A program made the translations under genes and the position numbers. A DNA stretch of 64,000 bases from a virus (Duplodnaviria > Heunggongvirae > Uroviricota > Caudoviricetes): the IMG/VR virus record IMGVR_UViG_3300021255_002784, positions 24,416 to 88,415 of that record; one strand, given 5' to 3'. The notes under the pieces are model-generated. The model had not been told where the DNA came from, ran no database searches, and saw nothing but the letters and a program-made list of their open reading frames with translations. Below are positions 4,288 through 40,514 of this stretch, piece after piece; within the stretch, counting starts at the first letter, position 1; every line of letters starts with the position of its first letter.

Positions 4288-5067
4288 ATGCTGCTCAAGA
4301 AAGGATCCAAAGGAGAAGACGTCAAGAGACTACAGGTTCTTCTGGGGTGTCGCCCGGATGGTGATTTTGGTCCTACTACTGAGAGGTTGGTTAAAGAATG
4401 GCAAGCCGCACATGATCTGGTACCTGATGGGATAGTGGGGGATAAGACTTGGTCGATGATGTGTGCCACCCCCCCACCTAGTCAAGTAGATTCGAGGGTT
4501 ATATATAATCCTATTGACGTCCACATCACACGCAAAGACGGTCGCCCTATCGAGTACCTCGTCATACACTTCACAGCTGGGTCATCTTCTGCAGGTGATG
4601 CTGATGAACTCAATCGTAATGTGTTCCTTAACAGAAATGCAAGTGCGGACTTTGTAGTGGATGATGACTCGATGCTGCAGGTCAATCCTGATCCTAAGAA
4701 CTACTATTGTTGGGCAGTAGGAGATGGCAAGGGTAAGTACGGTGTGACTAACCAGAACTCAATCAGCATTGAGATCTGTTCTAATCTGAAGAAAGGTACC
4801 ACGCCGAAGGTTCCTAATCATGAAGGATGGTACTTCACACAACCGTCAATAGACAATGCTGTACTGCTATCCAAAATTATTATGGAGAAGTACGACATCC
4901 CATTGGATAGGGTCATCCGTCATTACGATGCTACTCGTAAGTTGTGTCCAGGTATAATCGGATGGAACCCTGGTCCGATATATGATCCGAAAACTGGTAT
5001 CAAAACCGACAAACATAGTGATGAAAAAGCTTGGTTGACATTCAAAGATCGCCTGAAAGGCGCCTAA
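4288..5067 (+). CDS. endolysin: peptidoglycan-binding domain + N-acetylmuramoyl-L-alanine amidase (Amidase_2/PGRP fold)
   Basis: N-terminal PG_binding_1-like repeat (LKKGSKGEDVKRLQVLLG...DGIVGDKTW); amidase_2 signatures (HFTAG, EICSN, HYDATRKLCPG). Confidence 0.85.
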   Translation: MLLKKGSKGEDVKRLQVLLGCRPDGDFGPTTERLVKEWQAAHDLVPDGIVGDKTWSMMCATPPPSQVDSRVIYNPIDVHITRKDGRPIEYLVIHFTAGSSSAGDADELNRNVFLNRNASADFVVDDDSMLQVNPDPKNYYCWAVGDGKGKYGVTNQNSISIEICSNLKKGTTPKVPNHEGWYFTQPSIDNAVLLSKIIMEKYDIPLDRVIRHYDATRKLCPGIIGWNPGPIYDPKTGIKTDKHSDEKAWLTFKDRLKGA

Positions 5068-5078
5068 TTTTAATAGCC

Positions 5079-5112
5079 CATCTCAACAAACACAAAGATG
5101 GGCTATTATTAT
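5079..5112 (+). terminator. rho-independent terminator after the endolysin gene
   Basis: TAGCCCATCT...AGATGGGCTA hairpin followed by a T-rich run. Confidence 0.6.
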
Positions 5113-5133
5113 ATACTTACATAAACTGTATAT

Positions 5134-6837
5134 ATGGAACAAGAATCATCAATATCCTCAAGACTAATAGATGAAGGAGGCAGCATCCTAATTGGAGAAG
5201 GTCAATTACAGAACCCTTCTAATATACCAGGATTCAAGGAGACAACCAACTTCAAGCCTCGATATGCACAGGCCAAGCAGAAGAAGAAAGGTACCATCGC
5301 ACGGTTCTTCTCAAACATGTCTCGCCTGGGTATGACATACGATGAACAAGTCATTGCTAATATGCGTGCTATACCTGCAGATAAGAACTTCATTCCTAAA
5401 GAACAACAACTGATCAATCAGGACTTGTTCACATCGTTAGCTAACAACTGGAAGGTCAAACAGAACGCAGATAAGGATTTCTTTAGTAAAGACTTTCCTC
5501 AGAAACGTGACGCACTCCGCAAGTTGGCTATGCAACCCGAACTGGAAGATATCTTGGACACCATGTCTAACGAAGCTATCGTGTATGATAATGAAATGGT
5601 ATACTTCGCAGAACCTTTTGTTGAGGCTCAGGAGATCAATATGTTCACCAAAGAGGTCCAGGAGAAAATCACCAATACTATCAATACTAACTTCCGTCGT
5701 TTCTATAAGATGTTGAACTGGAAGTACAATGCCTGGGATGATTTCAAACGATTCCTCGTGGAGGGTATCCTGGCTTGGGAGATTGTTTATGATAATCTGG
5801 AGAAACCAACCAACATCATTGGGTTGGTTCCATTGGATCCGGCTACACTCACCAAGAAGTTCGATAACAACAAATGGTACTGGATACAATATAAGGGCAT
5901 GAATGGCAAGGAGCGCAAACTTCTCGATTCACAGGTTATTTATATATCTTATCAAGAGACCAACTGTCTGACTCGTTTGTCGTATCTGGAGCGTCTAATC
6001 AGACCGTTCAATATCTATCGTATCATCGAGCAAGCTCAGTTGATCTGGACCATTACCAACTCGTCCTATAAGATGAAGTTTACTATACCGGTTAAGGGTA
6101 TGAACCGCACACTTGGTATGCAGACTGTATCGTCCGCGATGAATAAATACAAGGAAGACATCAAGTTCATGCCGGATACTGGAGAATTGGAAATCAATGG
6201 ACAAGTGAACCTGCCGTTCAATAAAGAGTACTGGTTCCCCGAGAACGACTCTGGTACACCAAACATCGAGACACTGGGTGGCGAAGGACCTAACCTCAAT
6301 GATGACGACCAGTTACGTTACTTCAAGAATCAACTGTACAAGATATCTAAAATTCCTTTGAGTCGTTTTGAACAGGACAGTGGTGAGACCTGGTTTGGAT
6401 CCGATGCTACGTCGGTAGCTCGCACCGAGATTGATTTCGGACGATTCGTTACTCGTTTGCGTAACCGCTTCAGTCAAATCATTATCAAACCACTACAGAT
6501 GCAGTTAGCACTGTCTATCCCTGAACTACAAGACAACAGAGAGGTGCTCGAAGCTATCTCTTTGCAATACCACTCCTACAACCTCTTTGAAGAGATGATG
6601 GAAATGGAACTGATGCAGAAACGTGTCGACTTCATACAAACCATGAAAGATGGTATGGTGGACATGGACGCCAACGGAAATGAAATCAAATTTTGGTCAT
6701 CTAAATTCTTGGTACAGAAGTACTTGAAACTATCTGATGCTGACTTGAAGCTCAACGCTAAGTTGAAACAAGAAGAGATTGAAGAACTTAACCTTGCTGG
6801 AGGGGAGAACTCCGATGATGGTGGAGGTATGATGTAA
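5134..6837 (+). CDS. portal protein, T4 gp20-like
   Basis: C-terminal half aligns by eye with T4 gp20 (KIPLSRFEQDSGETWFGSDATSVARTEIDFGRFVTRLRNRF vs T4 [40 protein letters not shown]); size 567 aa. Confidence 0.75.
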   Translation: MEQESSISSRLIDEGGSILIGEGQLQNPSNIPGFKETTNFKPRYAQAKQKKKGTIARFFSNMSRLGMTYDEQVIANMRAIPADKNFIPKEQQLINQDLFTSLANNWKVKQNADKDFFSKDFPQKRDALRKLAMQPELEDILDTMSNEAIVYDNEMVYFAEPFVEAQEINMFTKEVQEKITNTINTNFRRFYKMLNWKYNAWDDFKRFLVEGILAWEIVYDNLEKPTNIIGLVPLDPATLTKKFDNNKWYWIQYKGMNGKERKLLDSQVIYISYQETNCLTRLSYLERLIRPFNIYRIIEQAQLIWTITNSSYKMKFTIPVKGMNRTLGMQTVSSAMNKYKEDIKFMPDTGELEINGQVNLPFNKEYWFPENDSGTPNIETLGGEGPNLNDDDQLRYFKNQLYKISKIPLSRFEQDSGETWFGSDATSVARTEIDFGRFVTRLRNRFSQIIIKPLQMQLALSIPELQDNREVLEAISLQYHSYNLFEEMMEMELMQKRVDFIQTMKDGMVDMDANGNEIKFWSSKFLVQKYLKLSDADLKLNAKLKQEEIEELNLAGGENSDDGGGMM

Positions 6838-6861
6838 TAGAATTTTTTAATAAAAAAAATC

Positions 6862-6895
6862 AACCGATACTATAAATGTGTCGGTTGTTTTTTAT
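6862..6895 (+). terminator. rho-independent terminator after the portal gene
   Basis: CAACCGATAC...GTGTCGGTTG hairpin followed by TTTTTTATTTT. Confidence 0.6.
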
Positions 6896-6922
6896 TTTAT
6901 ATAAAAAGAGAAGCTCATTGAT

Positions 6923-8611
6923 ATGGATGTAAAGTACCTACTAACCGCTCCAAGGAGTCGTTGCACGGAAAAGCATATTAAAAATAAATTTCCAGACGAA
7001 TATGTTATTATCAAAAATTTGGACGGGGAAACATTTGGAGAAAAACTTTATAATTACTGCTACAATTCTCCTGAACATGTGTGCCCTGTGTGTGGGAAAC
7101 AAACCAAATTTATGAATTTTATAAATGGATTTCATGAGTATTGCTCGACAAATTGTTCATACCGCAGTGAAAGGAGAACCAATAAAATTAAAAAGACTTG
7201 CATCGATAGATATGGTGTTTCCAATGCCTCCCAGCTTCAAGCGATTAAAGACAAAAAAAGACAGACGATAACTAAAAATTTCGGCGGATTTGGATTCGGA
7301 AGTCAAAAAATTTCTGAAAAATCAAACAAAACTATTCAAGAGAGATATGGTGTGGATAATATATCGACATTAGCTGAAATAAAAGATAAGAAAAAAGTAA
7401 CCACACAAAAACATTATGGCGTTGATAGTGTATTGTCCCTTCAGGAAAATAGAGAAAAAGCCAAACTGGCGATTCTAAAAAAGTACGGAAATGATTTTTT
7501 CAAGCATATAAACGCACTTTCAAGAGCATCAGTCAAACGAAATATACCCAGAATACATAATGACTTTATCTGTTATGATGAAAATGGGAATTGGATTATG
7601 AAATGCCCTCACCCTGAATGTAATAAGTGTGCTGAAAAAAGATACATCACCAAACAAAATATGTATCATGATCGACTAAGATGGGGAGCTGAGACGTGCA
7701 CACACTTGTTGGAACCGGGTAAATTTTCGAAGGGTTCGACAATAGAGTTGTTCGTAAGAGATATATTAGATCGATGCAACATAAATTATGAACCTAACGT
7801 TCGCAGTATTATAACACCAAAGGAATTAGACATATATATATCATCAAAAAATTTAGGGATTGAAATAAACGGTCTTCGATGGCACAGTACTGAGTTCAGA
7901 ACATTCAGTGATCATATAAATAAATTCTTACTGTGCAAACAACGAGGCATACGGCTGTTAAGCATTTGGCAAGATTGGATAGTTAATAAACCCCAAATTG
8001 TCGAGTCAATGATTTTGGATAAGCTAGGTCTCTGTTCTAACAAAATATATGCAAGAAAGTGCATTATTAAAGAAATTGATTCGAAAACGTGTAACTCATT
8101 TCTTGACCACAATCACATTCAAGGGGCATGTAAATCGGTTATCAGATTAGGCTTATATTATAATGATGAATTGATGAGTGTAATGTGTTTTTCCAAAAGA
8201 TCCAAATTATCTGGATCTAAAAGTATAAATAATGAAGAATGGGAGCTTATAAGATTTTGCAGTAAATTAAATCACGTTATTGTTGGAGGAGCCGGTAAGT
8301 TGTTGAATCATTTTATAAAAAATTGGAACCCTAAAATTATAACATCATTTTCTTGTAATGATATAAGTGATGGGGGATTGTATCGGATACTAGGATTCGA
8401 GGAGGAAGGCATAAATCCTTCATATTGGTATGTAGAAAAAAGTACCTATAAACGATATCATAGGGCTACTTTTACTAAAACCTGTATAAAGCAAAAATAT
8501 CCAGAATTAGATATTGAAAATCATACTGAAACAGAATTGATGTCATCCTTGCCTTACTGGAGGATATACGATAGTGGGACTACTAAATGGAAATTAAATG
8601 TAGAGTCCTGA
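6923..8611 (+). CDS. putative free-standing homing-endonuclease-like protein (Zn-finger, tandem ~30-aa repeats, Vsr/PD-(D/E)xK-like nuclease core)
   Basis: N-terminal Cys clusters (CPVCGK..., CSTNC); three tandem repeats RYGVxNxSxLxxIKDKKKxT; central region ELDIYISSKNLGIEINGLRWHS resembling Vsr/DUF559-type PD-(D/E)xK nucleases; C-terminal GGAGKLL-containing domain of unknown fold. Confidence 0.4.
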   Translation: MDVKYLLTAPRSRCTEKHIKNKFPDEYVIIKNLDGETFGEKLYNYCYNSPEHVCPVCGKQTKFMNFINGFHEYCSTNCSYRSERRTNKIKKTCIDRYGVSNASQLQAIKDKKRQTITKNFGGFGFGSQKISEKSNKTIQERYGVDNISTLAEIKDKKKVTTQKHYGVDSVLSLQENREKAKLAILKKYGNDFFKHINALSRASVKRNIPRIHNDFICYDENGNWIMKCPHPECNKCAEKRYITKQNMYHDRLRWGAETCTHLLEPGKFSKGSTIELFVRDILDRCNINYEPNVRSIITPKELDIYISSKNLGIEINGLRWHSTEFRTFSDHINKFLLCKQRGIRLLSIWQDWIVNKPQIVESMILDKLGLCSNKIYARKCIIKEIDSKTCNSFLDHNHIQGACKSVIRLGLYYNDELMSVMCFSKRSKLSGSKSINNEEWELIRFCSKLNHVIVGGAGKLLNHFIKNWNPKIITSFSCNDISDGGLYRILGFEEEGINPSYWYVEKSTYKRYHRATFTKTCIKQKYPELDIENHTETELMSSLPYWRIYDSGTTKWKLNVES

Positions 8612-8696
8612 GGACCATCAACTCAGGACTTTTTGTTTTATTATTTATACAAAGAAACCATACAGCAAACACCACTCAAAACGGTGGTGTTTTTTA
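8604..8696 (+). terminator. tandem rho-independent terminators
   Basis: AGTCCTGAG...CTCAGGACT hairpin + TTTTTG; second hairpin ACACCAC...GTGGTGT + TTTTTT. Confidence 0.6.
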
Positions 8697-8742
8697 TCTA
8701 AATTCATTTAATAAAGAAGACAAAACTTATATTTTATAGCAT

Positions 8743-10317
8743 ATGAGAAAAGTGATAAAACGAGACGGATCCAAGGAGATCTTCAATTTTAGTAAGATAT
8801 ACAATGCTGTTGATGCTGCATTCGTACACTGTAATCGAACGATGCCTGAAGGTTTCAAATCTGCATTGGAGAGTACATTCAAAAACGAGAACCCCCGCGA
8901 CATAAATGGTAAACTCCTTCCACTGACGGTAGAGTCTATTCAGGATCGAGTCCAGAACCTGCTGTTCAAACACGGATATCAAGATGTATATAACGAGTAC
9001 CTTATATATCGATATGAGCACAAGGTGACACGTGAATACGTCAAGTCCCAACGGGATTTCATCGACAGGTACATCCAATCAGATAACAATGCCAACGCCA
9101 CTATAGACGACAATTCTAATGTGGCCAGTAAAAACATAGGTACACTCAATAGTGAGATCCATAAACCATGGAACATCAAAATCTCTCGGGGCATGGTTAT
9201 GGACATGCTCAAGATACTGTATCCGGACTTCGATCACAAACAGTACATCAGGGATCTGGCCCATCATATAATATATAAACATGACGAGTCTACTTATGCC
9301 GGGCCTATCGCACCGTACTGTTGTAGTATTTCTATGTATCCATTTATTACTGGTGGTATCAAACATATCGGTGGTCTGTCAGCCTGCCCGCACAGTCTGA
9401 TGTCTTTCTGTGGTATATATATCAATCTGATATTCGCCATCAGTGGTCAGTTTGCAGGCGCTGTAGCTACGTCAGAGTTCTTCGTATACTTCGATTATTT
9501 CGCCCGAAAAGAATGGGGTGACGATTATTATAAGCGCACAGACGAACTCGTTGGAAAACGCACTTTACACAAGCTTATTCACCAGTATTTTCAACAGGTG
9601 GTGTACAGTATCAACCAGCCCGCAGCAGCACGAGGTATGCAGAGTGCTTTTGTGAACTTCTCATACTTCGACAAACCATTCTTTGATGGTATGTTTGGCA
9701 ACTTCATGTTCCCGGACGGAACCAAAGCATGCTGGGAGAGTGTTAACTGGCTACAACGCGATTTTATGCAGTGGTTCAATGAAGAGCGCTTACGCTGTAT
9801 GTTAACGTTCCCTGTAGAGTCTTTTGCTCTGGTATACAAGGACGGACACTTCGTGGATCAGGACAGCGCGGATTTCGTAGCGGCTGAGTATGCTCGAGGT
9901 CATTCCTTCTTTACGTACATATCTGATTCGGTGGATTCACTTTCTTCGTGTTGTTTTAATGGGGATGAAATTATCAAAATTAAAGATAAAAACGGTAATA
10001 ATTTTTCCACATCAATATCGGATTTTGTCAATTCAATAAGTTCTTCAGTTTGCCCATCAGGGAAAAAGATTGGGGAAAAAACATATTTTATAGATTCTTT
10101 TAATAAAAATGGTGGTTGCAAAGAGGTTCAGATTACGGGGGTTTTGAAAAAACAATACTGTGGCAAAATGTATAAGATTTGCGTGGATGAAAATAAATAC
10201 ATCACAGTAACACCAGACCATATTTTAATGGTGAGAAATCGAAAGGGGAATATTCTTTCCCTCCCTGCAGAAGATGTTGTAAGAAACCCAGATGACTATG
10301 AACTTGTTGTGGATTGA
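8743..10317 (+). CDS. nrdD: anaerobic ribonucleoside-triphosphate reductase NrdD, N-terminal fragment fused to the N-terminal half of an intein (IntN)
   Basis: ATP-cone at the N-terminus (MRKVIKRDGSKEIFNFSKIYNAVDAA); conserved NrdD SSCC(RL) motif split after the first Cys; from 9952 intein block A (CFNGDEIIKI) and block B (ITVTPDHILMV); stop after ~121 intein residues. Confidence 0.8.
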   Translation: MRKVIKRDGSKEIFNFSKIYNAVDAAFVHCNRTMPEGFKSALESTFKNENPRDINGKLLPLTVESIQDRVQNLLFKHGYQDVYNEYLIYRYEHKVTREYVKSQRDFIDRYIQSDNNANATIDDNSNVASKNIGTLNSEIHKPWNIKISRGMVMDMLKILYPDFDHKQYIRDLAHHIIYKHDESTYAGPIAPYCCSISMYPFITGGIKHIGGLSACPHSLMSFCGIYINLIFAISGQFAGAVATSEFFVYFDYFARKEWGDDYYKRTDELVGKRTLHKLIHQYFQQVVYSINQPAAARGMQSAFVNFSYFDKPFFDGMFGNFMFPDGTKACWESVNWLQRDFMQWFNEERLRCMLTFPVESFALVYKDGHFVDQDSADFVAAEYARGHSFFTYISDSVDSLSSCCFNGDEIIKIKDKNGNNFSTSISDFVNSISSSVCPSGKKIGEKTYFIDSFNKNGGCKEVQITGVLKKQYCGKMYKICVDENKYITVTPDHILMVRNRKGNILSLPAEDVVRNPDDYELVVD

Positions 10318-10358
10318 GTTTATCCAAAGAATAATTTATTATATTAAAAACCGATCAA

Positions 10359-11477
10359 ATGGAAGATTATTTAATTTGCCCAATATGTAGTTGTAAAAGT
10401 AAAAACCTAATATCACATATTAGAAGAACTCATGACAAAAATATAAAAAACAGAGTTGATTTTGAAAATAGATTTCCTGAATTAAAAGGTACAAAACTTC
10501 AGATATCTAGATACGATTTGTCAAAAGAATTTAAGTGTGAGTTTTGTGGAAAAATCTACCACAGATTGAATGACTTAAGAAACCATATTCGGCAAAATCA
10601 TCCGGATAAATACTTCAAAACAATACCTAACTTAAAAGCACCTCAACAAAAATGTCCTATATGCTCAAAACTGGTAGGAAACTTAAGACAACATGTTAAA
10701 GAATCTCATGATTTAGAATGGGAAGTATTTTGTAAAGAATATAATTGGGACGTTAATAAAGCAAAAATTATAACTGACGAGTACAGGAAAAAATTGTCGG
10801 AAAATAAAAAATTATATTATAGGAGTCCAGAAGGGTTGAAAAGAAGAAAGAAACAATCAGATTTCTGGAAAGAAAATAATCCAGTCTACAATCCAAAATG
10901 TTTAGAAAAATCAATGTTTACAAGAAGTTCAAATGGGCACCTACCAGTACGAAACCAGGATTGTAGAGGAATAAAAGTTAATTGTTTTGGAAAAACATTC
11001 AGAAGTTTTACCGAATTTAAGTTTTATATCTTGTGCAAAAAATACGGATTAAACATCAGATATGAACCAAACGATTATTGCGTCAAATGGTATTCAGAAG
11101 ATAAAAAATTTTATACTACATATCTCCCAGATTTCATCATAAATGAAAACGAACTGATCGAATTAAAACAAGACAAATATCAGGTTAAAAAATGTGTAAA
11201 TTTTGAGAAATACATAAAAGTTTCAGAAGCATATAAAAAATTAAATGTTAATTTTAAGATAGTTGATCCTATTGAATTTTTCAAAGAAAGGGGCGTAATT
11301 TTAGATTTTGAAGATAAACAGTACATTAAAGATAATATATTAAATTTGTATGATAAAAACGCTATACGAATAATAACCCCGTATAAAGAATCTTCCGAAT
11401 TAAGAGATCTTTTCGAAACGGACAATTTATCGAACATTTCTTGCATAACATTCACCAAAAATGCTAAAAAATCATAA
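10359..11477 (+). CDS. free-standing homing endonuclease (C2H2 zinc fingers + PD-(D/E)xK/Vsr-like domain) located between the IntN and IntC genes
   Basis: three CxxC...HxxxH fingers (CPICSCKSKNLISHIRRTHD, CEFCGKIYHRLNDLRNHIRQNHPD, CPICSKLVGNLRQHVKESHD); C-terminal YLPDFII...ELIELK nuclease-like motif; own ATG after a frame-0 stop, different frame from flanking ORFs. Confidence 0.6.
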   Translation: MEDYLICPICSCKSKNLISHIRRTHDKNIKNRVDFENRFPELKGTKLQISRYDLSKEFKCEFCGKIYHRLNDLRNHIRQNHPDKYFKTIPNLKAPQQKCPICSKLVGNLRQHVKESHDLEWEVFCKEYNWDVNKAKIITDEYRKKLSENKKLYYRSPEGLKRRKKQSDFWKENNPVYNPKCLEKSMFTRSSNGHLPVRNQDCRGIKVNCFGKTFRSFTEFKFYILCKKYGLNIRYEPNDYCVKWYSEDKKFYTTYLPDFIINENELIELKQDKYQVKKCVNFEKYIKVSEAYKKLNVNFKIVDPIEFFKERGVILDFEDKQYIKDNILNLYDKNAIRIITPYKESSELRDLFETDNLSNISCITFTKNAKKS

Positions 11478-12582
11478 TATGAAATATTGCAAAATTTATA
11501 AAATAGAGACTATAACTGTTGACCAACCAGTATATGATATAGAATTGGCAGAAAATCATTATTTTTCCGCCAATGGTATAATCACACATAATTGCAGGCT
11601 CAAGAACAAGGTGCAAACCAAAGAGTTCAATTTCACCAATGGTAATATGGGCGTCATGACTGGTAGCAAGTCAGTCATCACTCTGAATCTGAACCGTATT
11701 ATCCAAGACAGTTATAATGAGTGGTGTAAGATCTTCTCTAATGGTACACCTGACGAACTGAAAGAGACGTTCAAAGAAGACTACAGTGTTCTTTGCAACA
11801 GTCTCCAACAAGTACTCGAAAGAGTATATAAGTATCACACCGCCTACAACGAGAGCCTCTGGCGTATGTACGATGCACATATGTTACCTGTATATAGAGC
11901 AGGATTCATATCACTGGACAAGCAGTACCTGACTATCGGCATCAATGGTCTGAACGAAGCCGCTGAGTTCCTTGGTATATCCATCAATGACAACCCCGAG
12001 TATTCGAAGTTCTGTCAGACGGTGTTTAGCTGTATCAAAGATATGAACACCTCACACAACGGTAAGTTTAACGGACATAAACTGACATTCAATACCGAGT
12101 GTGTTCCTGCAGAATCGTTAGCTGCCAAGAACTACAACTGGGACAAGGCTGATGGATACTGGGTTCCTGAAGGACGTAATCTGTATGCATCTTATATATA
12201 TCTACCGTCTGACGAGAAAGTCAATCTGTTCGAGAAGATACGTATGCACGGTAAGAATTACATCGGCGACTACCTGGACGGAGGATCAGCAGCTCACCTC
12301 AACCTGGACAGTCACCTGAGTAAAGCCCAGTACGAGAAAGTGCTTCAGTACGCAGCTGAACAAGGATGTCAGTACCTGACTTTCAATATACCGAACAGTG
12401 AGTGTGCCGACTGTGGATATATTACGAAAGTACCTATTGCTCAATGCCCGAAGTGTGGATCAGAACATATCTGGTACTACGACAGACCGATTGGATATAT
12501 AACCCGAATAGATCGCTGGGCAACAGCAAGACAGATCGAACAAAAAACAAGAGTATACGAACACATTCCATCGGATTGTTAA
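11461..12582 (+). CDS. nrdD: IntC (C-terminal intein part) fused to the NrdD C-terminal fragment
   Basis: intein blocks F/G (VYDIELAENHYFSANGIITHN) then +1 Cys resuming CRLKNK (completes SSC|CRL); C-terminal Zn-ribbon CADCGY...CPKCGS and glycyl-radical region RPIGYITRI. Confidence 0.8.
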   Translation: MLKNHNMKYCKIYKIETITVDQPVYDIELAENHYFSANGIITHNCRLKNKVQTKEFNFTNGNMGVMTGSKSVITLNLNRIIQDSYNEWCKIFSNGTPDELKETFKEDYSVLCNSLQQVLERVYKYHTAYNESLWRMYDAHMLPVYRAGFISLDKQYLTIGINGLNEAAEFLGISINDNPEYSKFCQTVFSCIKDMNTSHNGKFNGHKLTFNTECVPAESLAAKNYNWDKADGYWVPEGRNLYASYIYLPSDEKVNLFEKIRMHGKNYIGDYLDGGSAAHLNLDSHLSKAQYEKVLQYAAEQGCQYLTFNIPNSECADCGYITKVPIAQCPKCGSEHIWYYDRPIGYITRIDRWATARQIEQKTRVYEHIPSDC

Positions 12583-12587
12583 TAAAA

Positions 12588-12619
12588 GAACCTAGATCCT
12601 AAAGATCTAGGTTCTTTTT
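12588..12619 (+). terminator. strong rho-independent terminator after nrdD
   Basis: AAGAACCTAGATC...GATCTAGGTTCTT perfect hairpin + TTTT. Confidence 0.7.
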
Positions 12620-12632
12620 AATATATTGATAT

Positions 12633-13556
12633 ATGCAAATAGTAATTCCTAGTGTAGAGATGTTGGTTCCGGAGACGGATCAGACATCTATGTTCAAGCA
12701 CATTGTCAAGTGTGCACAGACCTGTTATAAAGTTGATAAGGATGTGGACGATCCACGTGAATGGATCAAAACACATCTGTTGTCTAACTCACCTCGTCAT
12801 CTGAGTCCTCTGGAACACGGCACTGCTTATCTGACTATTCAGGTAGACAAAAATGCACCCACTGATATCGTCGATGAGGCAAACAGGCGCGATAATATTG
12901 TTCAATTTTATATTGATAACAAGTATTCTCATGTCAATACCTACGAGAGTCCTGTAGGATATACCGCTTATATCACTACTAACTATCGAGTGATCGAAGA
13001 GAACCATCGTTGGGGCGATCTGATCTATCTTACCAAACCATTCAAGAAACACGAGAAGCGTTATACCTTCCGATTCTCCTGCGATATCGGAGTCAGTCGC
13101 GAAGCTAATCGACATCGTTCCATCTCACCGAGCGAGCAGAGCACTCGGTACTGCAACTACAGCAATGATCGGTTCGGGAACTCACTGCAGATCGTCTTAC
13201 CAACTAATCTGTTTGATGCACCAGATGAACAACTGGTTCCTCGCAAACTGGATGAGTACTGCGCAGCTATTGCGGATGGAAAGGATTCCGGATTTCCTGA
13301 TATCGATTGGTGGATGTTCGCTAACATCGCTTGCGAGACTGCTTACATGAATCTGATTCGACTAGGATGGAAGCCCCAACAAGCTCGCCGCGTTCTTCCG
13401 TTAGACACTCATACTGAAGTGGTTTATACCGCATTCGAAAAAGACTGGAGACACTTCCTCTATTTGAGAGATGATAAGGCAGCTCATCCAGACATGCGTT
13501 TCCTGGCGCGTCAGGTACATATCCAACTACTGAAAGAAAAAGAAAAATACAAATAA
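12633..13556 (+). CDS. thyX: flavin-dependent thymidylate synthase ThyX
   Basis: ThyX signature RHRSISPSEQSTRY (RHRxxSxxxxSxRY) and N-terminal SPLEHG motif. Confidence 0.85.
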   Translation: MQIVIPSVEMLVPETDQTSMFKHIVKCAQTCYKVDKDVDDPREWIKTHLLSNSPRHLSPLEHGTAYLTIQVDKNAPTDIVDEANRRDNIVQFYIDNKYSHVNTYESPVGYTAYITTNYRVIEENHRWGDLIYLTKPFKKHEKRYTFRFSCDIGVSREANRHRSISPSEQSTRYCNYSNDRFGNSLQIVLPTNLFDAPDEQLVPRKLDEYCAAIADGKDSGFPDIDWWMFANIACETAYMNLIRLGWKPQQARRVLPLDTHTEVVYTAFEKDWRHFLYLRDDKAAHPDMRFLARQVHIQLLKEKEKYK

Positions 13557-34680: not shown

Positions 34681-34766
34681 ACCGCAATGGCGGAATTGGT
34701 AGACGCACCAGACTTAAAATCTGATGGACCAAAAGGTCCGTGTGGGTTCGAGTCCCACTTGCGGCA
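34681..34766 (+). tRNA. tRNA-Leu (anticodon TAA), type II
   Basis: cloverleaf: TG + GCG/CGC D-stem, anticodon loop CTTAAAA, variable arm hairpin, GTGGG-TTCGAGT-CCCAC T-arm; A1.C72 mismatch. Confidence 0.7.
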
Positions 34767-35126
34767 CAGTGTAAAAAAATTAAAAAAAAATATAAAGATC
34801 ACTAAAATTTAGAAAAGTTTTCTTATATATTATTGTAGAAGGACAGAAGCAAAAGTTCTAATACAAAACGATCTTTGACATATTGGAAATAGCAAAAAAG
34901 AAACTACATTGCTAAGGAAGGATAGTAAAACTATCCTGACAAAGCAATCGCAATACAAACAGGCGTAACGCTACTGTTTCTCGTGAGAGTTCAGTTACGA
35001 AAGGATGGGTCGAAAGACTTTCTTATCACATCCCGGACCACTTAGATCGATGAGGTGGACATTACGTAACGCTTTGACACAACGAGCGTATTTCTAGAAA
35101 TAGAATTTTGGAGTTGAGTTATCAAT

Positions 35127-35201
35127 AGGGTAGTGGCTCAGTCCGGTTAGAGCACTTGATTTGGGATCAAGGGGTCGCAGGTTCGAATCCTGTCTACCCT
35201 A
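35127..35201 (+). tRNA. tRNA-Pro (TGG)
   Basis: canonical cloverleaf, anticodon loop TTTGGGA. Confidence 0.85.
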
Positions 35202-35367
35202 CATACAGTTTGACATTGCGACGAAGAGCAAATCACGCAAAGTTACTTGAACAGTTCGGTGGCAGATATTGGAGATATATTGGTGAGACGGACGAAGACC
35301 AAGAAGGATGGTGATCGTAGCGCTTGAAATAACTCTAACGTATGGTAATGAGAATGTCAATCTTTTA

Positions 35368-35439
35368 GGGGAGTTAGCTCAATGGTAGAGCAATTGGCCG
35401 TTAACCAATAGGTTGTAGGTTCGAATCCTGCACTCCCCG
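35368..35439 (+). tRNA. tRNA-Asn (GTT)
   Basis: canonical cloverleaf, loop CCGTTAA. Confidence 0.85.
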
Positions 35440-35598
35440 CAAGTGGCGGGCGATTGATAGTTCTTACCGTCCAAGTTATAAGAACTATACAAAGAGCGAA
35501 ACGCAGGAGGCTCCATGAGAGGTGACTTTAAGCAAGACTCTCAAATCCAAAAACTTTATCTCGTAGAAGTTCCGGACACGGTTTTCATATGAGAGGTA

Positions 35599-35675
35599 CG
35601 TCTTTAAGCTTTGCACGGAGTGAAGTAGTATTGGGCTCTGTCCGGTAGAACGAGGTTCGAATCCTTGAAAGACGG
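35599..35675 (+). tRNA. tRNA-like element, possibly Arg (TCT), non-canonical
   Basis: 7-bp acceptor CGTCTTT/AAAGACG, good T-arm (CGAGG-TTCGAAT-CCTTG), D-stem GCTT/AAGT, anticodon arm with two G.U pairs and loop GCTCTGT (C33, G37). Confidence 0.35.
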
Positions 35676-35684
35676 CAATCGTAT

Positions 35685-35757
35685 TGGGAGATCTTCTAAA
35701 CGGTTAGGAAATCGGTCTGATACACCGGCAATCCGAGTTCGAGTCTCGGCCTCCCAA
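35685..35757 (+). tRNA. tRNA-Ile (GAT)
   Basis: cloverleaf, loop CTGATAC; A7.C66 mismatch. Confidence 0.75.
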
Positions 35758-35774
35758 CATAGTAAATACACTAA

Positions 35775-35847
35775 TGCCCTCTAGTATATCGAATTAGTAC
35801 ATCAGATTTTGATTCTGAGGGGCGAGGTTTGACTCCTCGGAGGGCAA
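35775..35847 (+). tRNA. tRNA-Gln (TTG)
   Basis: cloverleaf, loop TTTTGAT, U1-A72 pair typical of Gln; D-loop lacks GG. Confidence 0.75.
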
Positions 35848-36180
35848 CTTACAAATAAAACAATTTATGTGCAGCGCCTGACGACACATATCTTAGGAAT
35901 TGTAGGAACAACAATTTGGCAAATGTTGGGCACGGATAGTTGAAGGAAAACAACTTAAATAAACCAGAGTGCAGCGCCGAATGTGCCGTTGGGGATGGGG
36001 ACACACCTCTATAAATGAACAAAATGAATTATCTCCACCAACAAATCAACATGTCATTACGAACCAGCATAAGGTACGTACAATGTTCGTTTCTGAAAAG
36101 ATATAGGACTCTCAAAAAGACCAAGCTCCAGTTTGGCCACTGACTTGGGTGAGGAGAGGAAAATGAATGTTGATTTATAT

Positions 36181-36251
36181 TGCCTTTTGGTGTAATGGCA
36201 GCACATAGGGTTCTGGTCCCTAGAATCCGGGTTCGAGTCCTGGAGAGGCAA
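36181..36251 (+). tRNA. tRNA-Gln (CTG)
   Basis: cloverleaf, loop TTCTGGT, U1-A72. Confidence 0.75.
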
Positions 36252-36371
36252 CAAAAGCAATAAGTTGATGGTTCAAATCCATCTCGCGCGGAAGCGTTCA
36301 GTCAGACTTCCAAGTGATAGTTGGCCTGAAATTGGTCTTCGAAGATAAATGGTGTAAAACGTATTGCTCAC

Positions 36372-36455
36372 GGGAGAGCGCCAACGATGGTGAGTTGGGA
36401 TGGACTGTAAATCCATTGTCTTTTGACTCAGGGGGTTCGAATCCCTCCTCTCCCA
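36372..36455 (+). tRNA. tRNA-Tyr (GTA), type II
   Basis: loop CTGTAAA, long variable arm. Confidence 0.8.
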
Positions 36456-36483
36456 CATATGAAGATACTGGAATAAAATATAT

Positions 36484-36559
36484 ACCTCGGTAGGCAAATG
36501 TTGGTAAAGCCGATAGACTTAGGATCTGTTGTTTGTGGGTTCGAATCCCACTCGGGGTA
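36484..36559 (+). tRNA. tRNA with anticodon TAG (Leu by the code) but a type-I (short variable arm) structure
   Basis: acceptor ACCTCGG/TCGGGGT with two G.U pairs, loop CTTAGGA, 5-nt variable region, A73. Confidence 0.55.
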
Positions 36560-36582
36560 CAACAGATGAAATAGTATTGCAA

Positions 36583-36657
36583 GACTCCGTAGCTCAGTTG
36601 GATGAGAGCAACGCACTTTTAATGCGTGGGTCCTGGGTTCAAGTCCCAGCGGGGTCA
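36583..36657 (+). tRNA. tRNA-Lys (TTT)
   Basis: canonical, loop CTTTTAA. Confidence 0.85.
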
Positions 36658-36869
36658 CAATTATAACTAAAGTTAGAGGAAGAAGTCTTTTAGTTGTTCT
36701 CAGGAGAACGGCGGTTCGTTGAGGTACTGGGTCTGATAATGAAAAGGTTCCTCGTCAAAGGTTTAGGTCATAACCTTAGGATAATAACCCATAACTACTT
36801 TGAATGACCAGAGACTGTTATGGCAAAGGGGTCTTGACTAAAAGAGCGCATCACAAATCTAACTTATTT

Positions 36870-36942
36870 GGACCGGTAGCTCAGTTGGTAGAGCGCAGGC
36901 CTGAAGAGCCTGGCGTCGGCGGTTCGATCCCGTCCTGGTCCG
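36870..36942 (+). tRNA. tRNA-Phe (GAA)
   Basis: canonical, loop CTGAAGA. Confidence 0.85.
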
Positions 36943-36975
36943 CAATGAATAATGTGGCAGAGTGAAACGGATACG

Positions 36976-37051
36976 AGCTTTGTAATTATTGCTCAGAAAT
37001 CATTGGGGGCCCATAACCCACAGATAGCAGGTTCGACTCCTGCAGCCGCAA
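36976..37051 (+). tRNA. degenerate tRNA-like element (Met-like anticodon loop CCCATAA; no matching 5' acceptor)
   Basis: good T-arm GCAGG-TTCGACT-CCTGC and anticodon-like hairpin, but no complementary 5' acceptor or D-stem found. Confidence 0.25.
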
Positions 37052-37071
37052 CAAAATAAAAATATATAAAT

Positions 37072-37145
37072 GGTGTCATAGTTCAGCTGATTAGAATGCC
37101 TGACTGTCGATCAGGAGGTCGCGGGTTTGAGTCCCGCTGGCACCG
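37072..37145 (+). tRNA. tRNA-Asp (GTC)
   Basis: canonical, loop CTGTCGA. Confidence 0.85.
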
Positions 37146-37155
37146 CTAATATATG

Positions 37156-37227
37156 GGCCATGTAGTGTAACGGCTAGCACTTCACATTTGCAATGTGACG
37201 GAGGGGTTCGAATCCCACATGTGTCCA
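37156..37227 (+). tRNA. tRNA-Ala (TGC)-like element with defective T-stem/acceptor; ends in TCCA
   Basis: perfect anticodon arm TCACA-TTTGCAA-TGTGA, D-arm GTGT/GCAC, but T-stem and acceptor pairing are poor. Confidence 0.3.
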
Positions 37228-37237
37228 CAAACATCAT

Positions 37238-37319
37238 ACCCTGGTGGCGGAATTGGTAGACGCGCTTGACTCAAAATCAGGTCCGAAAGGGTGTGTGGGT
37301 TCGAGTCCTACCTAGGGTA
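37238..37319 (+). tRNA. tRNA-Leu (CAA), type II
   Basis: TG + GCG D-stem, loop CTCAAAA, variable hairpin, GTGGG-TTCGAGT-CCTAC. Confidence 0.8.
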
Positions 37320-37338
37320 CACGTAAAATAATATAAGT

Positions 37339-37662
37339 ATGAGAAAAATTATCAATGCGTTCGCAGTCTTGTTTATATTGATTGGATTAAATGCATGTCA
37401 GGTACAGAAAATCAATCCAAAATGGACACAGGATCCGCGAGTAGAAGTAGTAAATGAACAGACAGTCATATTCCGGGATGTGATTAGGATTGAAATTATT
37501 TCAAACAATCCAGCGCAAATCACATACGTTTACGATTTGAAACATGGTAGACCGGTCAAGACAGCACGAAGTTCATTTGAAGTAAACGTAAAACACGGCG
37601 ACTATCTTATTCAGTCGAATCGCAAAATCACCAAAACACAGTACGAGGTCGTTATTGAATGA
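37339..37662 (+). CDS. small secreted/lipoprotein-like protein (107 aa) embedded in the tRNA array
   Basis: signal-peptide-like N-terminus MRKIINAFAVLFILIGLNAC (lipobox-like LNAC). Confidence 0.4.
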   Translation: MRKIINAFAVLFILIGLNACQVQKINPKWTQDPRVEVVNEQTVIFRDVIRIEIISNNPAQITYVYDLKHGRPVKTARSSFEVNVKHGDYLIQSNRKITKTQYEVVIE

Positions 37663-37901
37663 CCTCTGCTCATGAGGCTATTATCACAATTGGTTAATAT
37701 GGTGGGTTCGAATCCCTCTAGTCCCACAACCGGTAAAAAGACATATGTCTAGCGCAAAGCCGAGTGTCCTGCGCGATATAAAAAGGACTGCCAAGTCATC
37801 TTGAGGAGCTATAGATGAGCTACACGCTGTTGTGGTAAGTGAACAGAAAAGCTTTAGGGGTTTCAAAATTTGTAAATCTTTGTGTTGATGAGAAGCAACT
37901 A

Positions 37902-37971
37902 GTCTCGGTAGCTCAGTTGGTTAGAGCTCTCCGCGGAGGAGAGGTCGCTGGTTCAAGTCCAGTCTGAGACG
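37902..37971 (+). tRNA. tRNA-like gene with truncated anticodon arm (70 nt; possible anticodon CGG)
   Basis: perfect acceptor, D-arm (GCTC-AGTTGGTTA-GAGC) and T-arm, but only 19 nt between D and T arms (CTCTCC-GCGGA-GGAGAG, 5-nt loop). Confidence 0.4.
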
Positions 37972-37975
37972 ATGT

Positions 37976-38048
37976 GCCCGGATAGCTCAGTTGGTAGAGC
38001 AACTGATTTGTAATCAGTCGGTCGTCAGTTCGAGTCTGACCCCGGGCT
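37976..38048 (+). tRNA. tRNA-Thr (TGT)
   Basis: canonical, loop TTTGTAA; A7.C66. Confidence 0.8.
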
Positions 38049-38141
38049 CGCATGCATTTCCAGGATTCAATTGGAATCGAATTTCATATTTGGCGGGTGA
38101 CTAAAATTGATTATGGTGTTAATACTGGCAGAACACCCCAT

Positions 38142-38215
38142 GCAGGAATAGCTCAGTTGGCCAGAGCGGGACCTTGCCAAGGTTCAGGTCGCGAGTTCGA
38201 GTCTCGTTTCCTGCT
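38142..38215 (+). tRNA. tRNA-Gly (GCC)
   Basis: canonical, loop TTGCCAA. Confidence 0.85.
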
Positions 38216-38430
38216 CCAGGATATAGCCCAGATACGGGTCTGATGAAGACATTCGTTAGTAGTTGCGGGACGCCAATACGAAACAGTTTGTTGGATTCTA
38301 AAACATGAAGTTTATGGAGACTGTGGTGGTTGCAAACTCCGCAGTGGAAATGATGATGTATGTAAATAGAGTGCTCCCTGTGGAGGGGAGAGGTCGAAGA
38401 ATAACCCGTAAAAACTTCTGTCCTGACCAT

Positions 38431-38502
38431 GACCAATGAGTCCAGGCGGTTAGGCACCAATCTGCAAAATTGGGTAGCGGGGTTCAACTCCCTGATTGGT
38501 CA
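38431..38502 (+). tRNA. tRNA-Cys (GCA)
   Basis: loop CTGCAAA, T-loop TTCAACT. Confidence 0.75.
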
Positions 38503-38730
38503 CAAAATGGGTTCAAGCTGTACATAGGACCCTCCGGTAATTCCAGGTATGTATGTTTAGACCGGACGCTCGGGAGCTTATAGTCCTGCGATAGTGCGAC
38601 TAAATTACGGGACATGGTGTACGGTGCATATCTAGGGGGCTAGAAGGTGAGGGGTAAATAATGCTAGTTGCGAATAACCTCTTTATCAGCAATGGTACAG
38701 GTTCGACTCCTGATGTCTCGACAAATATAT

Positions 38731-38804
38731 GGCCTTATCGTCTAACCTGCGCAGGACGTTACTCTCTCAAGGTAAAAATCCGAGTTCGATCCTCGGTGAG
38801 GCTA
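38731..38804 (+). tRNA. tRNA-Glu (CTC)-like
   Basis: acceptor with two G.U pairs, loop CTCTCAA, D-loop without GG, T-arm CCGAG-TTCGATC-CTCGG. Confidence 0.5.
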
Positions 38805-38936
38805 CTATTGCAACTGGATTGGAAAACAGAGCACCATTCTAATCTCATGAGAGTTAGTAGGCAGGCATAGAAGATTCAGACTCTCAGACCCCGAGATAGC
38901 TCAGCTGGTTAGAGTCCAGTTCTCGGGACGCATTAT

Positions 38937-39011
38937 TGGTTCTGAGCTCGGCTGGTGCGTAGCGGCGGTCTCATAAACCGAGGGACGTGGGTTCAAATCC
39001 CACAGAGCCAA
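38937..39011 (+). tRNA. tRNA-Met (CAT), elongator-type
   Basis: loop CTCATAA, U1-A72 paired, large D-loop. Confidence 0.7.
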
Positions 39012-39086
39012 CACACAAAAAATTAAATGATCCATTAAAGATCAGAAGAGAGCTTCTATATATTATTATAGAAGAACGAAACATAC

Positions 39087-39159
39087 TGGGGTATAGTTCA
39101 GCTGGTAGAATGTTGGTCTCCAAAACCGAAGGTCGCGGGTTCGAATCCTGCTGCCCCTG
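39087..39159 (+). tRNA. tRNA-Trp (CCA)
   Basis: loop CTCCAAA, 3' CGCCCCT-like acceptor as in E. coli Trp; U1.U72 mismatch. Confidence 0.75.
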
Positions 39160-39264
39160 CTAAAGTTCGAAAGTCCTTAACGAAAGCGGTGTGATCAACA
39201 TGTCAACCTTAAACAAGTTGAAGACGCAGTGAAAATCTGACATCGTAAGAGGGAAGAACTTTTT

Positions 39265-39345
39265 ACTCCCATGCTGGAAATGGTAGACAGGCCAGACTAA
39301 GGATCTGGTGTCTTCGACGTGCGGGTTCGAGTCCCGCTGGGAGTA
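39265..39345 (+). tRNA. type-II tRNA with anticodon AAG (Leu by the code; unusual A34)
   Basis: TG + CTG/CAG D-stem as in the other Leu tRNAs, loop CTAAGGA, variable hairpin GTC-TTCG-GAC, perfect acceptor ACTCCCA/TGGGAGT. Confidence 0.6.
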
Positions 39346-39404
39346 CGTAAAACGGTAATCTAGTATACATTTGAAAAAGTTAGACTACCATTTTATTATA
39401 GATC

Positions 39405-39878
39405 ATGAGAAAAGATTTAATTGGAAGAACCCAGGATATTCTTAAATGGGTTGCTGAAGGATGGTCATTTACAGAAATGTACAAGGAACTCGGTTGTTCC
39501 CGAGATGCACTTCATTATTTCTTGAAAACCAGAAAGATCGAATATAAAGGTAATCAGAGTAGAAAAGGGAGAAAAATAGATCCTAAAAGAAAAACGGCTC
39601 TTCAACTTATAGATGGAATTGAAAATGGGCTCAGTATCGGTAATTCTACATTAAGGGACAGACTCATCCAAGACAAGCTCAAAGAATATAAGTGTGAAGT
39701 ATGTGGGGCGAATGAATGGTTCGGAAAACCCATACCGTTAGAGTTGCATCACAAGGATTTCAATCATCACAACTCTAAATTAGAAAATCTTCAAATACTA
39801 TGTCCAAATTGCCACGCATATATTCATAAATACAATATAATCACTCCTATGTTGGAAATGGTAGACAGGCCAGACTAA
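39405..39878 (+). CDS. HNH homing endonuclease (HTH + HNH) inserted in the tRNA array
   Basis: C-terminal HNH motif CEVCGANEW...LELHHKDFNHHNSKLENLQILCPNCH; the last 9 codons are encoded by a duplicated tRNA 5' half. Confidence 0.7.
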   Translation: MRKDLIGRTQDILKWVAEGWSFTEMYKELGCSRDALHYFLKTRKIEYKGNQSRKGRKIDPKRKTALQLIDGIENGLSIGNSTLRDRLIQDKLKEYKCEVCGANEWFGKPIPLELHHKDFNHHNSKLENLQILCPNCHAYIHKYNIITPMLEMVDRPD

Positions 39879-39923
39879 GGAGTTGGTGTCTTTGACGTGA
39901 GGGTTCGAGTCCCTCTTTGGGCA
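39844..39923 (+). pseudogene. chimeric/pseudo tRNA (5' half copied from the 39265 tRNA, 3' half from a different type-II tRNA)
   Basis: 33-nt near-identity to the 39265 tRNA up to the anticodon loop, then divergent 3' half with compensatory T-stem (GAGGG/CCCTC) and acceptor 3' TTTGGGC that cannot pair with the 5' end. Confidence 0.5.
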
Positions 39924-40286
39924 CAGGTCTTTGACATATTGATACCGCAAGAAAAGAATAAGTTCAAAGATTCAACACGTTTTTATGCGATTGAGTAGGC
40001 AGTTGGAATAATAAGCGTCATAAGATGAGGGAGTCGACGTTGAAATCGAATTGTTACCAGAGCAGCACTTACTGGGAGTATTAACAAAGTCTTGAAAGCT
40101 TCGAGATTTCATTGATGAACATAGCCCGAAGTCAACAAAACGAGAACGATTCAACGGGTTCGAATCCGATGAATCCAACACAAACCGGATGGTGCAACCG
40201 GATAGTCACGGGATTGAAACTTACTGAGTATGTTCCGCTTCAGAGTACTTCGGAGAACCCCTATATCTTTTAAGCGGTATCTTTTT

Positions 40287-40358
40287 GCCCCGATAGTTCA
40301 ACGGATAGAACATGTGGCTACGGACCACAGGATCCGGGTTCGAATCCTGGTCGGGGTA
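40287..40358 (+). tRNA. tRNA-Arg (ACG)
   Basis: canonical, loop CTACGGA. Confidence 0.85.
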
Positions 40359-40366
40359 CTTTTTAT

Positions 40367-40439: not shown

Positions 40440-40514
40440 CAATCCTTCCAGGTTTAAGTTGAAAGAGCGGCCTGGTAGCTATGTTCTGGAATAGCAAAAA
40501 ACTCATCGCTCCAC

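Follow-up and report, generated by a model that had tools for sequence, protein, structure and literature searches.

A gene for a class III ribonucleotide reductase (RNR), nrdD, is carried in two separate pieces by a virus of the class Caudoviricetes (IMG/VR record IMGVR_UViG_3300021255_002784). The 64,000 nucleotides (nt) analysed here, positions 24,416 to 88,415 of that record, are called the window. Three open reading frames (ORFs) follow one another at the nrdD locus on the same strand. The first encodes the N-terminal part of NrdD, which runs directly into the N-terminal half of an intein. The second encodes a protein with three Cys-Cys-His-His (CCHH) zinc fingers and a predicted nuclease domain. 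The third encodes the C-terminal half of the intein followed by the remainder of NrdD. The features are collected in Table 1. A first-pass annotation, made from the sequence of the window, had described this three-ORF layout with its TGA stop and its AT-rich gap, and the coordinates agree with ours.

Table 1. Features of the interrupted nrdD locus (positions in the window; aa, amino acids)
Feature	Position	Strand	Remarks
nrdD N-extein, 403 aa	8743-9951	+	ATP-cone and N-terminal part of the class III RNR barrel; ends ...SVDSLSSC
N-intein, 121 aa (CFNGDE...YELVVD), with stop codon	9952-10317	+	TGA stop at 10315-10317
Block A Cys1	9952-9954
Block B T-x-D-H (TVTPDH)	10204-10221
Spacer, 41 nt, AT-rich	10318-10358	+	from the N-intein stop to the nuclease start codon
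Free-standing putative homing endonuclease, 372 aa	10359-11477	+	three CCHH fingers, helical linker, PD-(D/E)xK domain
CCHH finger 1	10377-10433	+
CCHH finger 2	10536-10601	+
CCHH finger 3	10653-10709	+
Predicted PD-(D/E)xK nuclease domain	about 10956-11453	+
Nuclease motif residues	E219 (11013), E236 (11064), D258 (11130), E268 (11160), K270 (11166)	+	invariant
C-intein, 38 aa from ATG 11479	11479-11592	+	blocks F and G = VYDIELAENHYFSANGIITHN
nrdD C-extein, 329 aa, with stop codon	11593-12582	+	begins with the +1 Cys of CRLKNK, the second Cys of SCCR
Zn-ribbon cysteines, CADCGY	12403-12420
Zn-ribbon cysteines, CPKCGS	12445-12462
Glycyl-radical motif, RPIGY	12484-12498

The first ORF (8743-10317) is 524 aa long and reads ...FFTYISDSVDSLSSC/CFNGDEIIKI...ITVTPDHILMV...YELVVD, where the slash marks the predicted splice junction. 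Splitting at the motifs gives the N-intein the same length that the first-pass annotation had estimated. The last Cys of the N-extein is the first Cys of the SCCR motif of NrdD. The third ORF (11461-12582; 373 aa) begins MLKNHNMKYCK and reads MLKNHNMKYCKIYKIETITVDQPVYDIELAENHYFSANGIITHN/CRLKNK.... Its upstream ATG at 11461 gives a C-intein of 44 aa and overlaps the nuclease ORF, and a second in-frame ATG (MKYCK...) lies at 11479. The second ATG is most likely the start, because all homologous C-inteins begin with M-K/N-F/W at the position with which it aligns. This start gives a TAAtATG junction with the stop codon of the nuclease. The two nrdD ORFs share a reading frame, and the nuclease is read in another. 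The exteins have a G+C content of 43.7% (N) and 43.9% (C), and the content of the N-intein, nuclease and C-intein is 32.8%, 27.8% and 27.2%, respectively. No terminator-like site separates the three ORFs on the coding strand, so their co-transcription is likely; the nearest terminator-like hairpin is located upstream of nrdD (8667-8692). The spacer contains no significant hairpin (z +1.08), and promoter- or terminator-like sites are not in excess in the spacer region.

The two exteins correspond to complementary parts of one class III RNR. The Pfam NRDD profile is matched at positions 31-240 by the N-ORF (106 bits) and at positions 258-560 by the C-ORF (168.7 bits), and the NrdD N-terminus bears an ATP-cone (50.5 bits). 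TIGR02827 matches both ORFs, with E values of 2.8e-112 (N) and 8.1e-91 (C). Joined in silico, the exteins give a protein of 403 + 329 = 732 aa, compared with 731 aa for the uninterrupted NrdD of the crAss-like phage cr116_1. The two proteins align end to end with 60% identity and no gap at the junction, where DSLSSC/CRLKNK is identical in both (residues 1-404 of the N-ORF are 58% identical to the cr116_1 protein). The SSC/CRL motif is restored on joining, as the first-pass annotation had proposed, in a product collinear with an uninterrupted NrdD. The junction-spanning sequence predicted for spliced NrdD is ...DSLSSCCRLKNK.... The joined protein also aligns with Thermotoga maritima NrdD (4coi; E 1.6e-64) through the Zn ribbon and the Gly loop, and the junction maps between C329 and C330 in the SCCR motif. 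Both cysteines are essential in T. maritima NrdD, since the C329A and C330A variants are inactive (PMC4493059). The NRDD barrel, the SCCR finger-loop motif, the C-terminal Zn ribbon and the RxxGY glycyl-radical motif that characterize class III RNRs are all found in the exteins. As judged from these alignments, the intein occupies the most conserved catalytic segment of NrdD.

Intein blocks A and B at the end of the first ORF and blocks F and G at the beginning of the third had been named in the first-pass annotation, and they score above the curated cut-offs of NCBIfam. TIGR01445 (intein_Nterm) matches residues 404-497 of the N-ORF with 35.3 bits (cut-off 24.5), and TIGR01443 (intein_Cterm) matches residues 23-45 of the C-ORF with 32.9 bits (cut-off 15.6). 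The Pfam family Intein_splicing stays below threshold in both ORFs. When the halves are joined in silico, their best solved relative is the Mja KlbA intein (2jmz; E 7.8e-11). The joined intein also matches a DNA polymerase intein (9hth; E 7.3e-7) and the naturally split gp41-1 (E 1.8e-4); the match to NrdJ-1 is weak and not significant (E 0.09). The features of a class-1 intein with a HINT domain are present, namely C1, TPDH, VYDIEL..NHYF, the terminal HN and the +1 Cys. Across 16 relatives, both split and contiguous, that share only 36-55% identity overall, Cys1, T-x-D-H, VYD..L...H.F..N, the terminal HN and the +1 Cys do not vary. The window N-intein has four extra cysteines (C34, C56, C70 and C76).

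The middle ORF belongs to a family of which 22 homologues are found by a single-sequence search and 29 by a profile search. The family forms about 29 clusters at 90% identity and, in the 10 contexts read, is seen only inside the nrdD split intein. The 22 homologues align with a mean column identity of 54%, and the zinc ligands of all three fingers are invariant among them (C7/C10/H20/H25, C60/C63/H76/H81 and C99/C102/H112/H117). Each finger is a classical C2H2 unit of the form C-x2-C-x9-12-H-x3-5-H and is modelled as beta-beta-alpha. Pfam zf-Di19 is matched with 37.7 bits (cut-off 27.5), and finger 2 matches classical eukaryote-type (Zif268-type) and designed fingers in the PDB with E values down to 1.3e-13.

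The C-terminal half of this protein is recognized through its predicted structure. An alignment-based AlphaFold2 (AF2) model has a mean predicted local distance difference test (pLDDT) score of 85.7, exceeding 90 over residues 210-360. It contains the restriction-endonuclease-like alpha-beta-beta-beta-alpha-beta core of the PD-(D/E)xK superfamily with an acidic residue in helix 1, a D and an ExK. E219 is located in the first core helix, P257-D258 follows the strand 251-255, and E268-x-K270 lies on the strand 265-269. The closest solved structure is TnsA of Tn7 (1t0f), with a listed comparison value of 7.1 over 145 residues. The values listed for VRR-NUC, TnsA in the Tn7 transpososome, I-Bth0305I (3r3p) and Vsr (1cw0) are 6.1, 5.9, 4.6 and 4.5, respectively. 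Lower structural matches include tRNA-splicing endonuclease subunits, Hjc resolvases, FAN1, type II restriction enzymes and R2 retrotransposon proteins. The resemblance to TnsA is structural only, because a comparison of the nuclease profile with one TnsA sequence by hhalign gives a probability of 0.1. No TnsA family appears in Pfam scans, whether of the whole ORF (E<=0.01) or of residues 187-372 (E<=10), and the latter scan returns noise only. No library used names the family of the C-terminal half. Foldseek matches among viral models are phage proteins labelled NUMOD3, TnsA-N-terminal domain, C2H2, Ros/MucR and Endonuclease I (E 5e-9 to 1e-4). Since these matches have low TM-scores, phage nucleases of similar modular build exist, none of them close.

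The first-pass annotation had described the middle ORF as three C2H2 fingers joined to a PD-(D/E)xK/Vsr-like nuclease domain. The fingers stand through their invariance and the PD-(D/E)xK assignment through fold and motif, but the likeness to Vsr does not hold. The nuclease domain has no conserved His, the E-D-x-H-D motif is absent, and neither the N-terminal NUMOD/helix-turn-helix (HTH) region of the EDxHD family nor a closest likeness to Vsr/3R3P is seen. We conclude that the middle protein combines a PD-(D/E)xK nuclease, as modelled, with a three-finger DNA-binding module and represents a small uncharacterised family. It is probably a homing endonuclease.

The broken layout is not an assembly error. 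Independent ENA (197,476 bp), JGI and Logan assemblies encode exactly this nuclease protein, flanked by the same ORFs. These assemblies are identical in sequence here and the layout recurs in loci whose nucleases are only 29-57% identical to that of the window, which disposes of the sequencing frameshift that the first-pass annotation had considered. All 10 distinct nuclease homologues with a readable context (29-57% identity to the window nuclease by BLASTP or tblastn) lie between an nrdD N-part and an nrdD C-part. The loci named for the shared layout are P0015, P0023, P0008, P0019, P0020, P0081, P0077, IMG/VR L011 and the window. The fractured loci have N-inteins of 118-121 aa, nucleases of 366-382 aa and C-inteins of 38-40 aa, and the nuclease stop overlaps or adjoins the C-intein start. 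The N-intein stop is at a conserved alignment position in nine diverged loci, and the spacer before the nuclease is 30-64 nt long in eight homologous loci. The junction common to the loci is [SA]C/C[FL].G.E ... [TS]HN/CR[LM]. Extein identity across the lineages with an intact three-ORF layout is only 29-74%. At the protein level, identity to the nearest relatives is about 50%, a distance at which saturation of synonymous sites would be expected. A megablast search of the region against 50,697 phage records gives no match. A tblastn search of the nuclease against the same records also finds none, so the family is absent from the deposited phage genomes searched.

The sporadic distribution of the element, its foreign G+C content and its occurrence in one context only indicate that it is mobile and probably of the homing type. 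Among 23 IMG/VR phage loci with a C-extein 45-70% identical to that of the window, 22 have an uninterrupted SSC-CRL and one (L017) has the split intein without the nuclease. In L011, the exteins are 29-30% identical to those of the window, compared with 43% for the N-intein, 55% for the C-intein and 34% for the nuclease. This pattern fits a movement of the element between divergent nrdD genes, and a stronger constraint on the intein could contribute to it.

Contiguous relatives of the same intein are also found. An exhaustive HMMER search with the N-intein against 1.84 billion cluster representatives yields 49 proteins at E<=1e-3. About 28 of these are split forms, since the matching region runs to within a few residues of their C-terminus. 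In at least 7, the match is internal, and here a contiguous mini-intein occupies the same site in NrdD. Two of them, P0032 and P0035, are 896 and 902 aa long, compared with 403 + 121 + 44 + 329 = 897 aa for the pieces of the window. The contiguous inteins measure 160-168 aa and the joined split inteins 157-165 aa. Because the lengths are equal, the split form can be read as a mini-intein that received a gene, a stop codon and a start codon in its block B/F loop, with nothing lost. The position of the split between Hint blocks B and F, suggested in the first-pass annotation, agrees with these relatives. A neighbour-joining tree of the inteins interleaves split and contiguous forms, grouping the split intein of L011 with the contiguous P0063 (bootstrap 93) and those of L004 and L007 with the contiguous P0028 (bootstrap 87). 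The tree suggests more than one split or re-fusion event, a lead drawn from a short alignment by a simple method.

Split inteins also persist where the nuclease is missing. L014 and L017 have gaps of 44 nt and 173 nt, respectively, between the intein halves, with no gene in them. In L016, on a 97.8-kb NCBI contig, a 222-aa glycosyltransferase-like ORF (6683-7351; Pfam Caps_synth / Gly_transf_sug) replaces the nuclease. All three loci retain intact intein halves and intact extein sequence on either side of the junction. That the split state endures without the nuclease speaks indirectly for halves that work in trans.

The nrdD genes of the relatives show further interruptions. In L014, an insert of about 240 nt (about 7200-7480) breaks the C-extein after ...NFTNGNIGV and before ...QTGSKSVITINL, and it contains a sub-threshold match to a group I intron model at 7278-7346 (17.3 bits, E 0.07). 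The C-extein of L011 is divided into two ORFs of 213 and 144 aa that lie 25 nt apart (4597-5698), with no intein motifs visible there. An extra contiguous intein of the LAGLIDADG type is found in the nrdD N-part of L007 (2160-4952), L011 (582-3458) and L014 (4001-6979). Since it sits upstream of the split intein, one nrdD gene hosts two different kinds of intein. L040, a 73-kb phage-like contig, has an IS605 OrfB/TnpB-like gene (1-1421; Pfam OrfB_IS605, Cas12f1-like_TNB) about 1.2 kb upstream of its fractured nrdD. P0028, a 374-aa NrdD with a contiguous mini-intein, begins with 25 residues (MSEQELKELESKLWAAADKMRG) unlike NrdD. We take these residues to resemble the N-terminus of a type I methyltransferase subunit, and P0028 may come from a chimeric contig or a wrong gene call.

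It is very probable that the locus is a fractured nrdD, in which a mobile class-1 mini-intein with a homing-endonuclease gene in its block B/F loop interrupts a class III RNR gene between the two SCCR cysteines. Trans-splicing is proposed from the conserved splicing residues, and homing from the sporadic distribution, foreign G+C content and unique context. From what is probably a single transcript, two polypeptides would be made, one consisting of the N-extein and the 121-aa N-intein and the other of the 38-aa C-intein and the C-extein. The intein halves would associate into a complete HINT domain. Splicing via Cys1, the T-x-D-H of block B, the His-Asn of block G and the +1 Cys would then join ...SSC to CRL.... 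In the class-1 route, this would proceed by an N-S acyl shift at Cys1, trans-thioesterification to the +1 Cys, Asn cyclisation and an S-N shift. The product would be a 732-aa NrdD with the native SCCR motif. The three fingers of the middle protein would recognize DNA, and its PD-(D/E)xK domain would cut an nrdD allele that lacks the nuclease, either at an empty SSC/CRL site or in a nuclease-free mini-intein. In a mixed infection, repair from the occupied allele would copy the element. Since split and contiguous forms interleave, the tree leans towards the nuclease-free mini-intein, rather than the empty site, as the target. A bolder extension, possible though we would not yet bet on it, is that the middle ORF founds an undescribed lineage of homing endonucleases. 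Such natural zinc-finger nucleases, with three CCHH fingers and a TnsA-like PD-(D/E)xK domain, would home into the mini-intein loop of NrdD and repeatedly turn cis-splicing into trans-splicing inteins.

Several observations weigh against the fractured-gene reading. The net charges of the window intein halves are about +1 (N) and -1 (C). The halves lack the marked charge complementarity of well-studied fast split inteins, which is strong in most homologues too, and the eight homologous N-inteins have net charges of -6 to -13. A single-sequence AF2 model of the joined intein has low confidence (pLDDT 47), so the completeness of the intein fold is argued from the sequence matches. No motif of the activase gene nrdG occurs in the 64-kb window; the gene may be located on another part of the 197-kb contig, or the host may provide it. 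The nuclease domain has no sequence-level homology to any characterised nuclease, and its catalytic role is therefore argued from predicted fold and motif.

The low charge complementarity would suit NrdD fragments that assemble non-covalently, with the intein halves serving as interaction domains without ligation. A precedent is the mobE-split NrdA of phage Aeh1, a fragmented phage RNR that is reported to be functional without splicing (PMC3045599). However, the invariance of all splicing residues in the 16 relatives is unexpected for a dimerisation tag, and a 159-aa domain left between the SCCR cysteines would probably block the finger loop. Assembly of this kind is thus very improbable. The lack of an nrdG motif in the window would suit a decaying pseudogene, inactivated by insertion of the nuclease gene, whose halves have no function. 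Mobile elements frequently degrade the RNR genes of phages (PMC3653736). Decay is nevertheless very unlikely, since the exteins are full-length with ATP-cone, SCCR, Zn-ribbon cysteines and glycyl-radical motif, the layout is kept intact in lineages as diverged as those above, and split inteins are kept where the nuclease is gone.

The shared frame of the N- and C-ORFs might instead reflect one contiguous intein-with-endonuclease ORF that is disrupted by an artefact, recoded or restored by RNA splicing. Some gut phages use alternative genetic codes and have many introns (PMC12880540). This reading is effectively refuted by the three identical assemblies, the stop conserved in nine loci, the start codon and different frame of the nuclease, and the contiguous mini-intein relatives, which carry nothing extra between the halves. 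A group I intron carrying the nuclease is not found by an Rfam E-value scan of 8400-12900, and it is rejected because only 41 nt outside the ORF are non-coding. None of the 29 tRNAs in the window is a suppressor, and read-through of the TGA meets a TAA after 11 codons. The middle ORF, for its part, might be a domesticated or regulatory zinc-finger protein resident in the intein loop, acting as a repressor or as a nuclease against competing phages. Ros/MucR-type CCHH fingers in prokaryotes are usually transcription factors, and the glycosyltransferase-like gene in the same slot of L016 implies that the loop tolerates other cargo. We regard such a role as unlikely, because a restriction-endonuclease-like fold is predicted with confidence, its E/D/ExK residues do not vary, and the small, sporadic, low-G+C family is confined to the nrdD split intein in every context read. 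A fractured nrdD with a homing endonuclease remains the preferred interpretation.

The window is part of a phage contig of about 197 kb that encodes a T4-like portal, an amidase, ThyX, a DNA ligase and a tRNA array. Related contigs of 178-208 kb are present in IMG/VR. The nearest NrdD relatives are found in crAss-like and Prevotella Lak phages, one homologous locus falls in a Bacteroidaceae bin, and a Bacteroidota host is plausible. The element appears to come from gut- or rumen-type phages of about 190 kb. Between the portal gene (5134-6837) and nrdD lies a mobile-looking ORF of 562 aa with a low G+C content of 33.6% (6923-8611, plus strand). It matches DUF7487 and PHROG 3339 'homing endonuclease' (E 3e-110), and a DUF7487 ORF is in the equivalent place in L007. 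The tRNA array (34681-44270) comprises 29 genes by ARAGORN and 27 by Rfam, all on the plus strand and covering most amino acids.

Fractured genes are extended by this locus to the third RNR class, with the break once more in the radical-cysteine loop. The idea that inteins and their nucleases converge on the active-site DNA that is most conserved gains support from this. Because one intein family offers its contiguous, its fractured and its nuclease-less split form, the gene-breaking model of split-intein origin becomes testable. If homing into the mini-intein loop is true, one family keeps every stage, from the empty site and the mini-intein to the fractured form with nuclease and the split form with the nuclease lost or replaced. 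The inteins are candidate tools, since this new natural family of the Cys1/Cys+1 split type offers dozens of diverged pairs that may be orthogonal. The nuclease is another candidate, compact and with its specificity perhaps in three zinc fingers, as a natural counterpart of engineered zinc-finger nucleases. Gene callers report such a locus as two 'NrdD' fragments and a hypothetical protein, which can be misread as a pseudogene.

The arrangement is of the fractured-gene type described by Dassa et al. in 2009, who found gp41 helicase, IMPDH, DnaE, NrdA, NrdJ, DNA ligase and terminase loci in the Global Ocean Sampling (GOS) metagenomes (PMC2677866). Here too, two adjacent collinear ORFs have N- and C-intein motifs at their facing ends, with a separate, predicted endonuclease ORF between them. 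The fractured-gene assignment of the first-pass annotation is upheld on this point, and only the Vsr-like nature of the putative homing endonuclease falls away. As in the 2009 study, the split is at the canonical endonuclease-insertion loop, and endonuclease-less versions exist (gp41-7 there; L014 and L017 here). The insertion in an RNR gene is again in the region of the thiyl-radical cysteine; in the NrdA and NrdJ fractured genes, it is at or adjoining that residue (PMC2677866). The eight host enzyme types listed in 2009 do not include NrdD, and the nucleases are GIY-YIG or Vsr-like (PMC2677866). Here, in contrast, the host protein is a class III NrdD and the nuclease is neither GIY-YIG nor Vsr-like. 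The genomes are also different, being gut- or rumen-type phages of about 190 kb instead of marine cyanophage-like genomes. Furthermore, no hairpin or late-promoter element is found upstream of the nuclease, and contiguous mini-intein relatives of the same intein are available.

The individual parts also differ from their known counterparts. The window intein resembles gp41-1, NrdJ-1 and Npu/Ssp DnaE as a class-1 intein with Cys1 and +1 Cys, an N-part of about 100-120 aa and a C-part of about 35-40 aa. It differs from them in its intein family (with Mja KlbA as the nearest solved member), its site and host protein, and its weak charge complementarity. The EDxHD family, to which I-Bth0305I belongs, corresponds to the 'Vsr-like' nucleases of the fractured genes first described. 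Its defining features are the E-D-x-H-D motif, in which a histidine acts as the base, and a NUMOD region at the N-terminus (PMC3239194; PDB 3R3P). Unlike I-Bth0305I, the window nuclease has a canonical D...ExK and no catalytic histidine, CCHH fingers replace the NUMOD/HTH region, and TnsA and VRR-NUC are structurally closer to it. Unlike Tn7 TnsA (1T0F), it has no TnsB/C/D partners and is therefore not a transposon component; its neighbours are the nrdD halves in every locus examined.

Fragmentation of nrdD itself has been reported. Of 104 genomes of gut 'Jug' jumbo phages, 95 have a fragmented nrdD, and the inserts encode endonucleases or Intein_splicing proteins, a point that the 2026 paper on them does not take further (PMC12880540). 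A 2013 survey of phage RNRs lists split nrdD genes, with no split intein in nrdD in the part consulted (PMC3653736). The consulted sections of these two papers, on Jug phages and on cultured phages, note the fragmentation, but describe neither a split intein at the SCCR site nor a zinc-finger PD-(D/E)xK family (PMC12880540, PMC3653736). A full-text literature search, covering the 15 best-ranked of 487 papers, found no description of a split intein in nrdD. The fractured-gene principle is known; NrdD as its host gene and the nuclease family are new.

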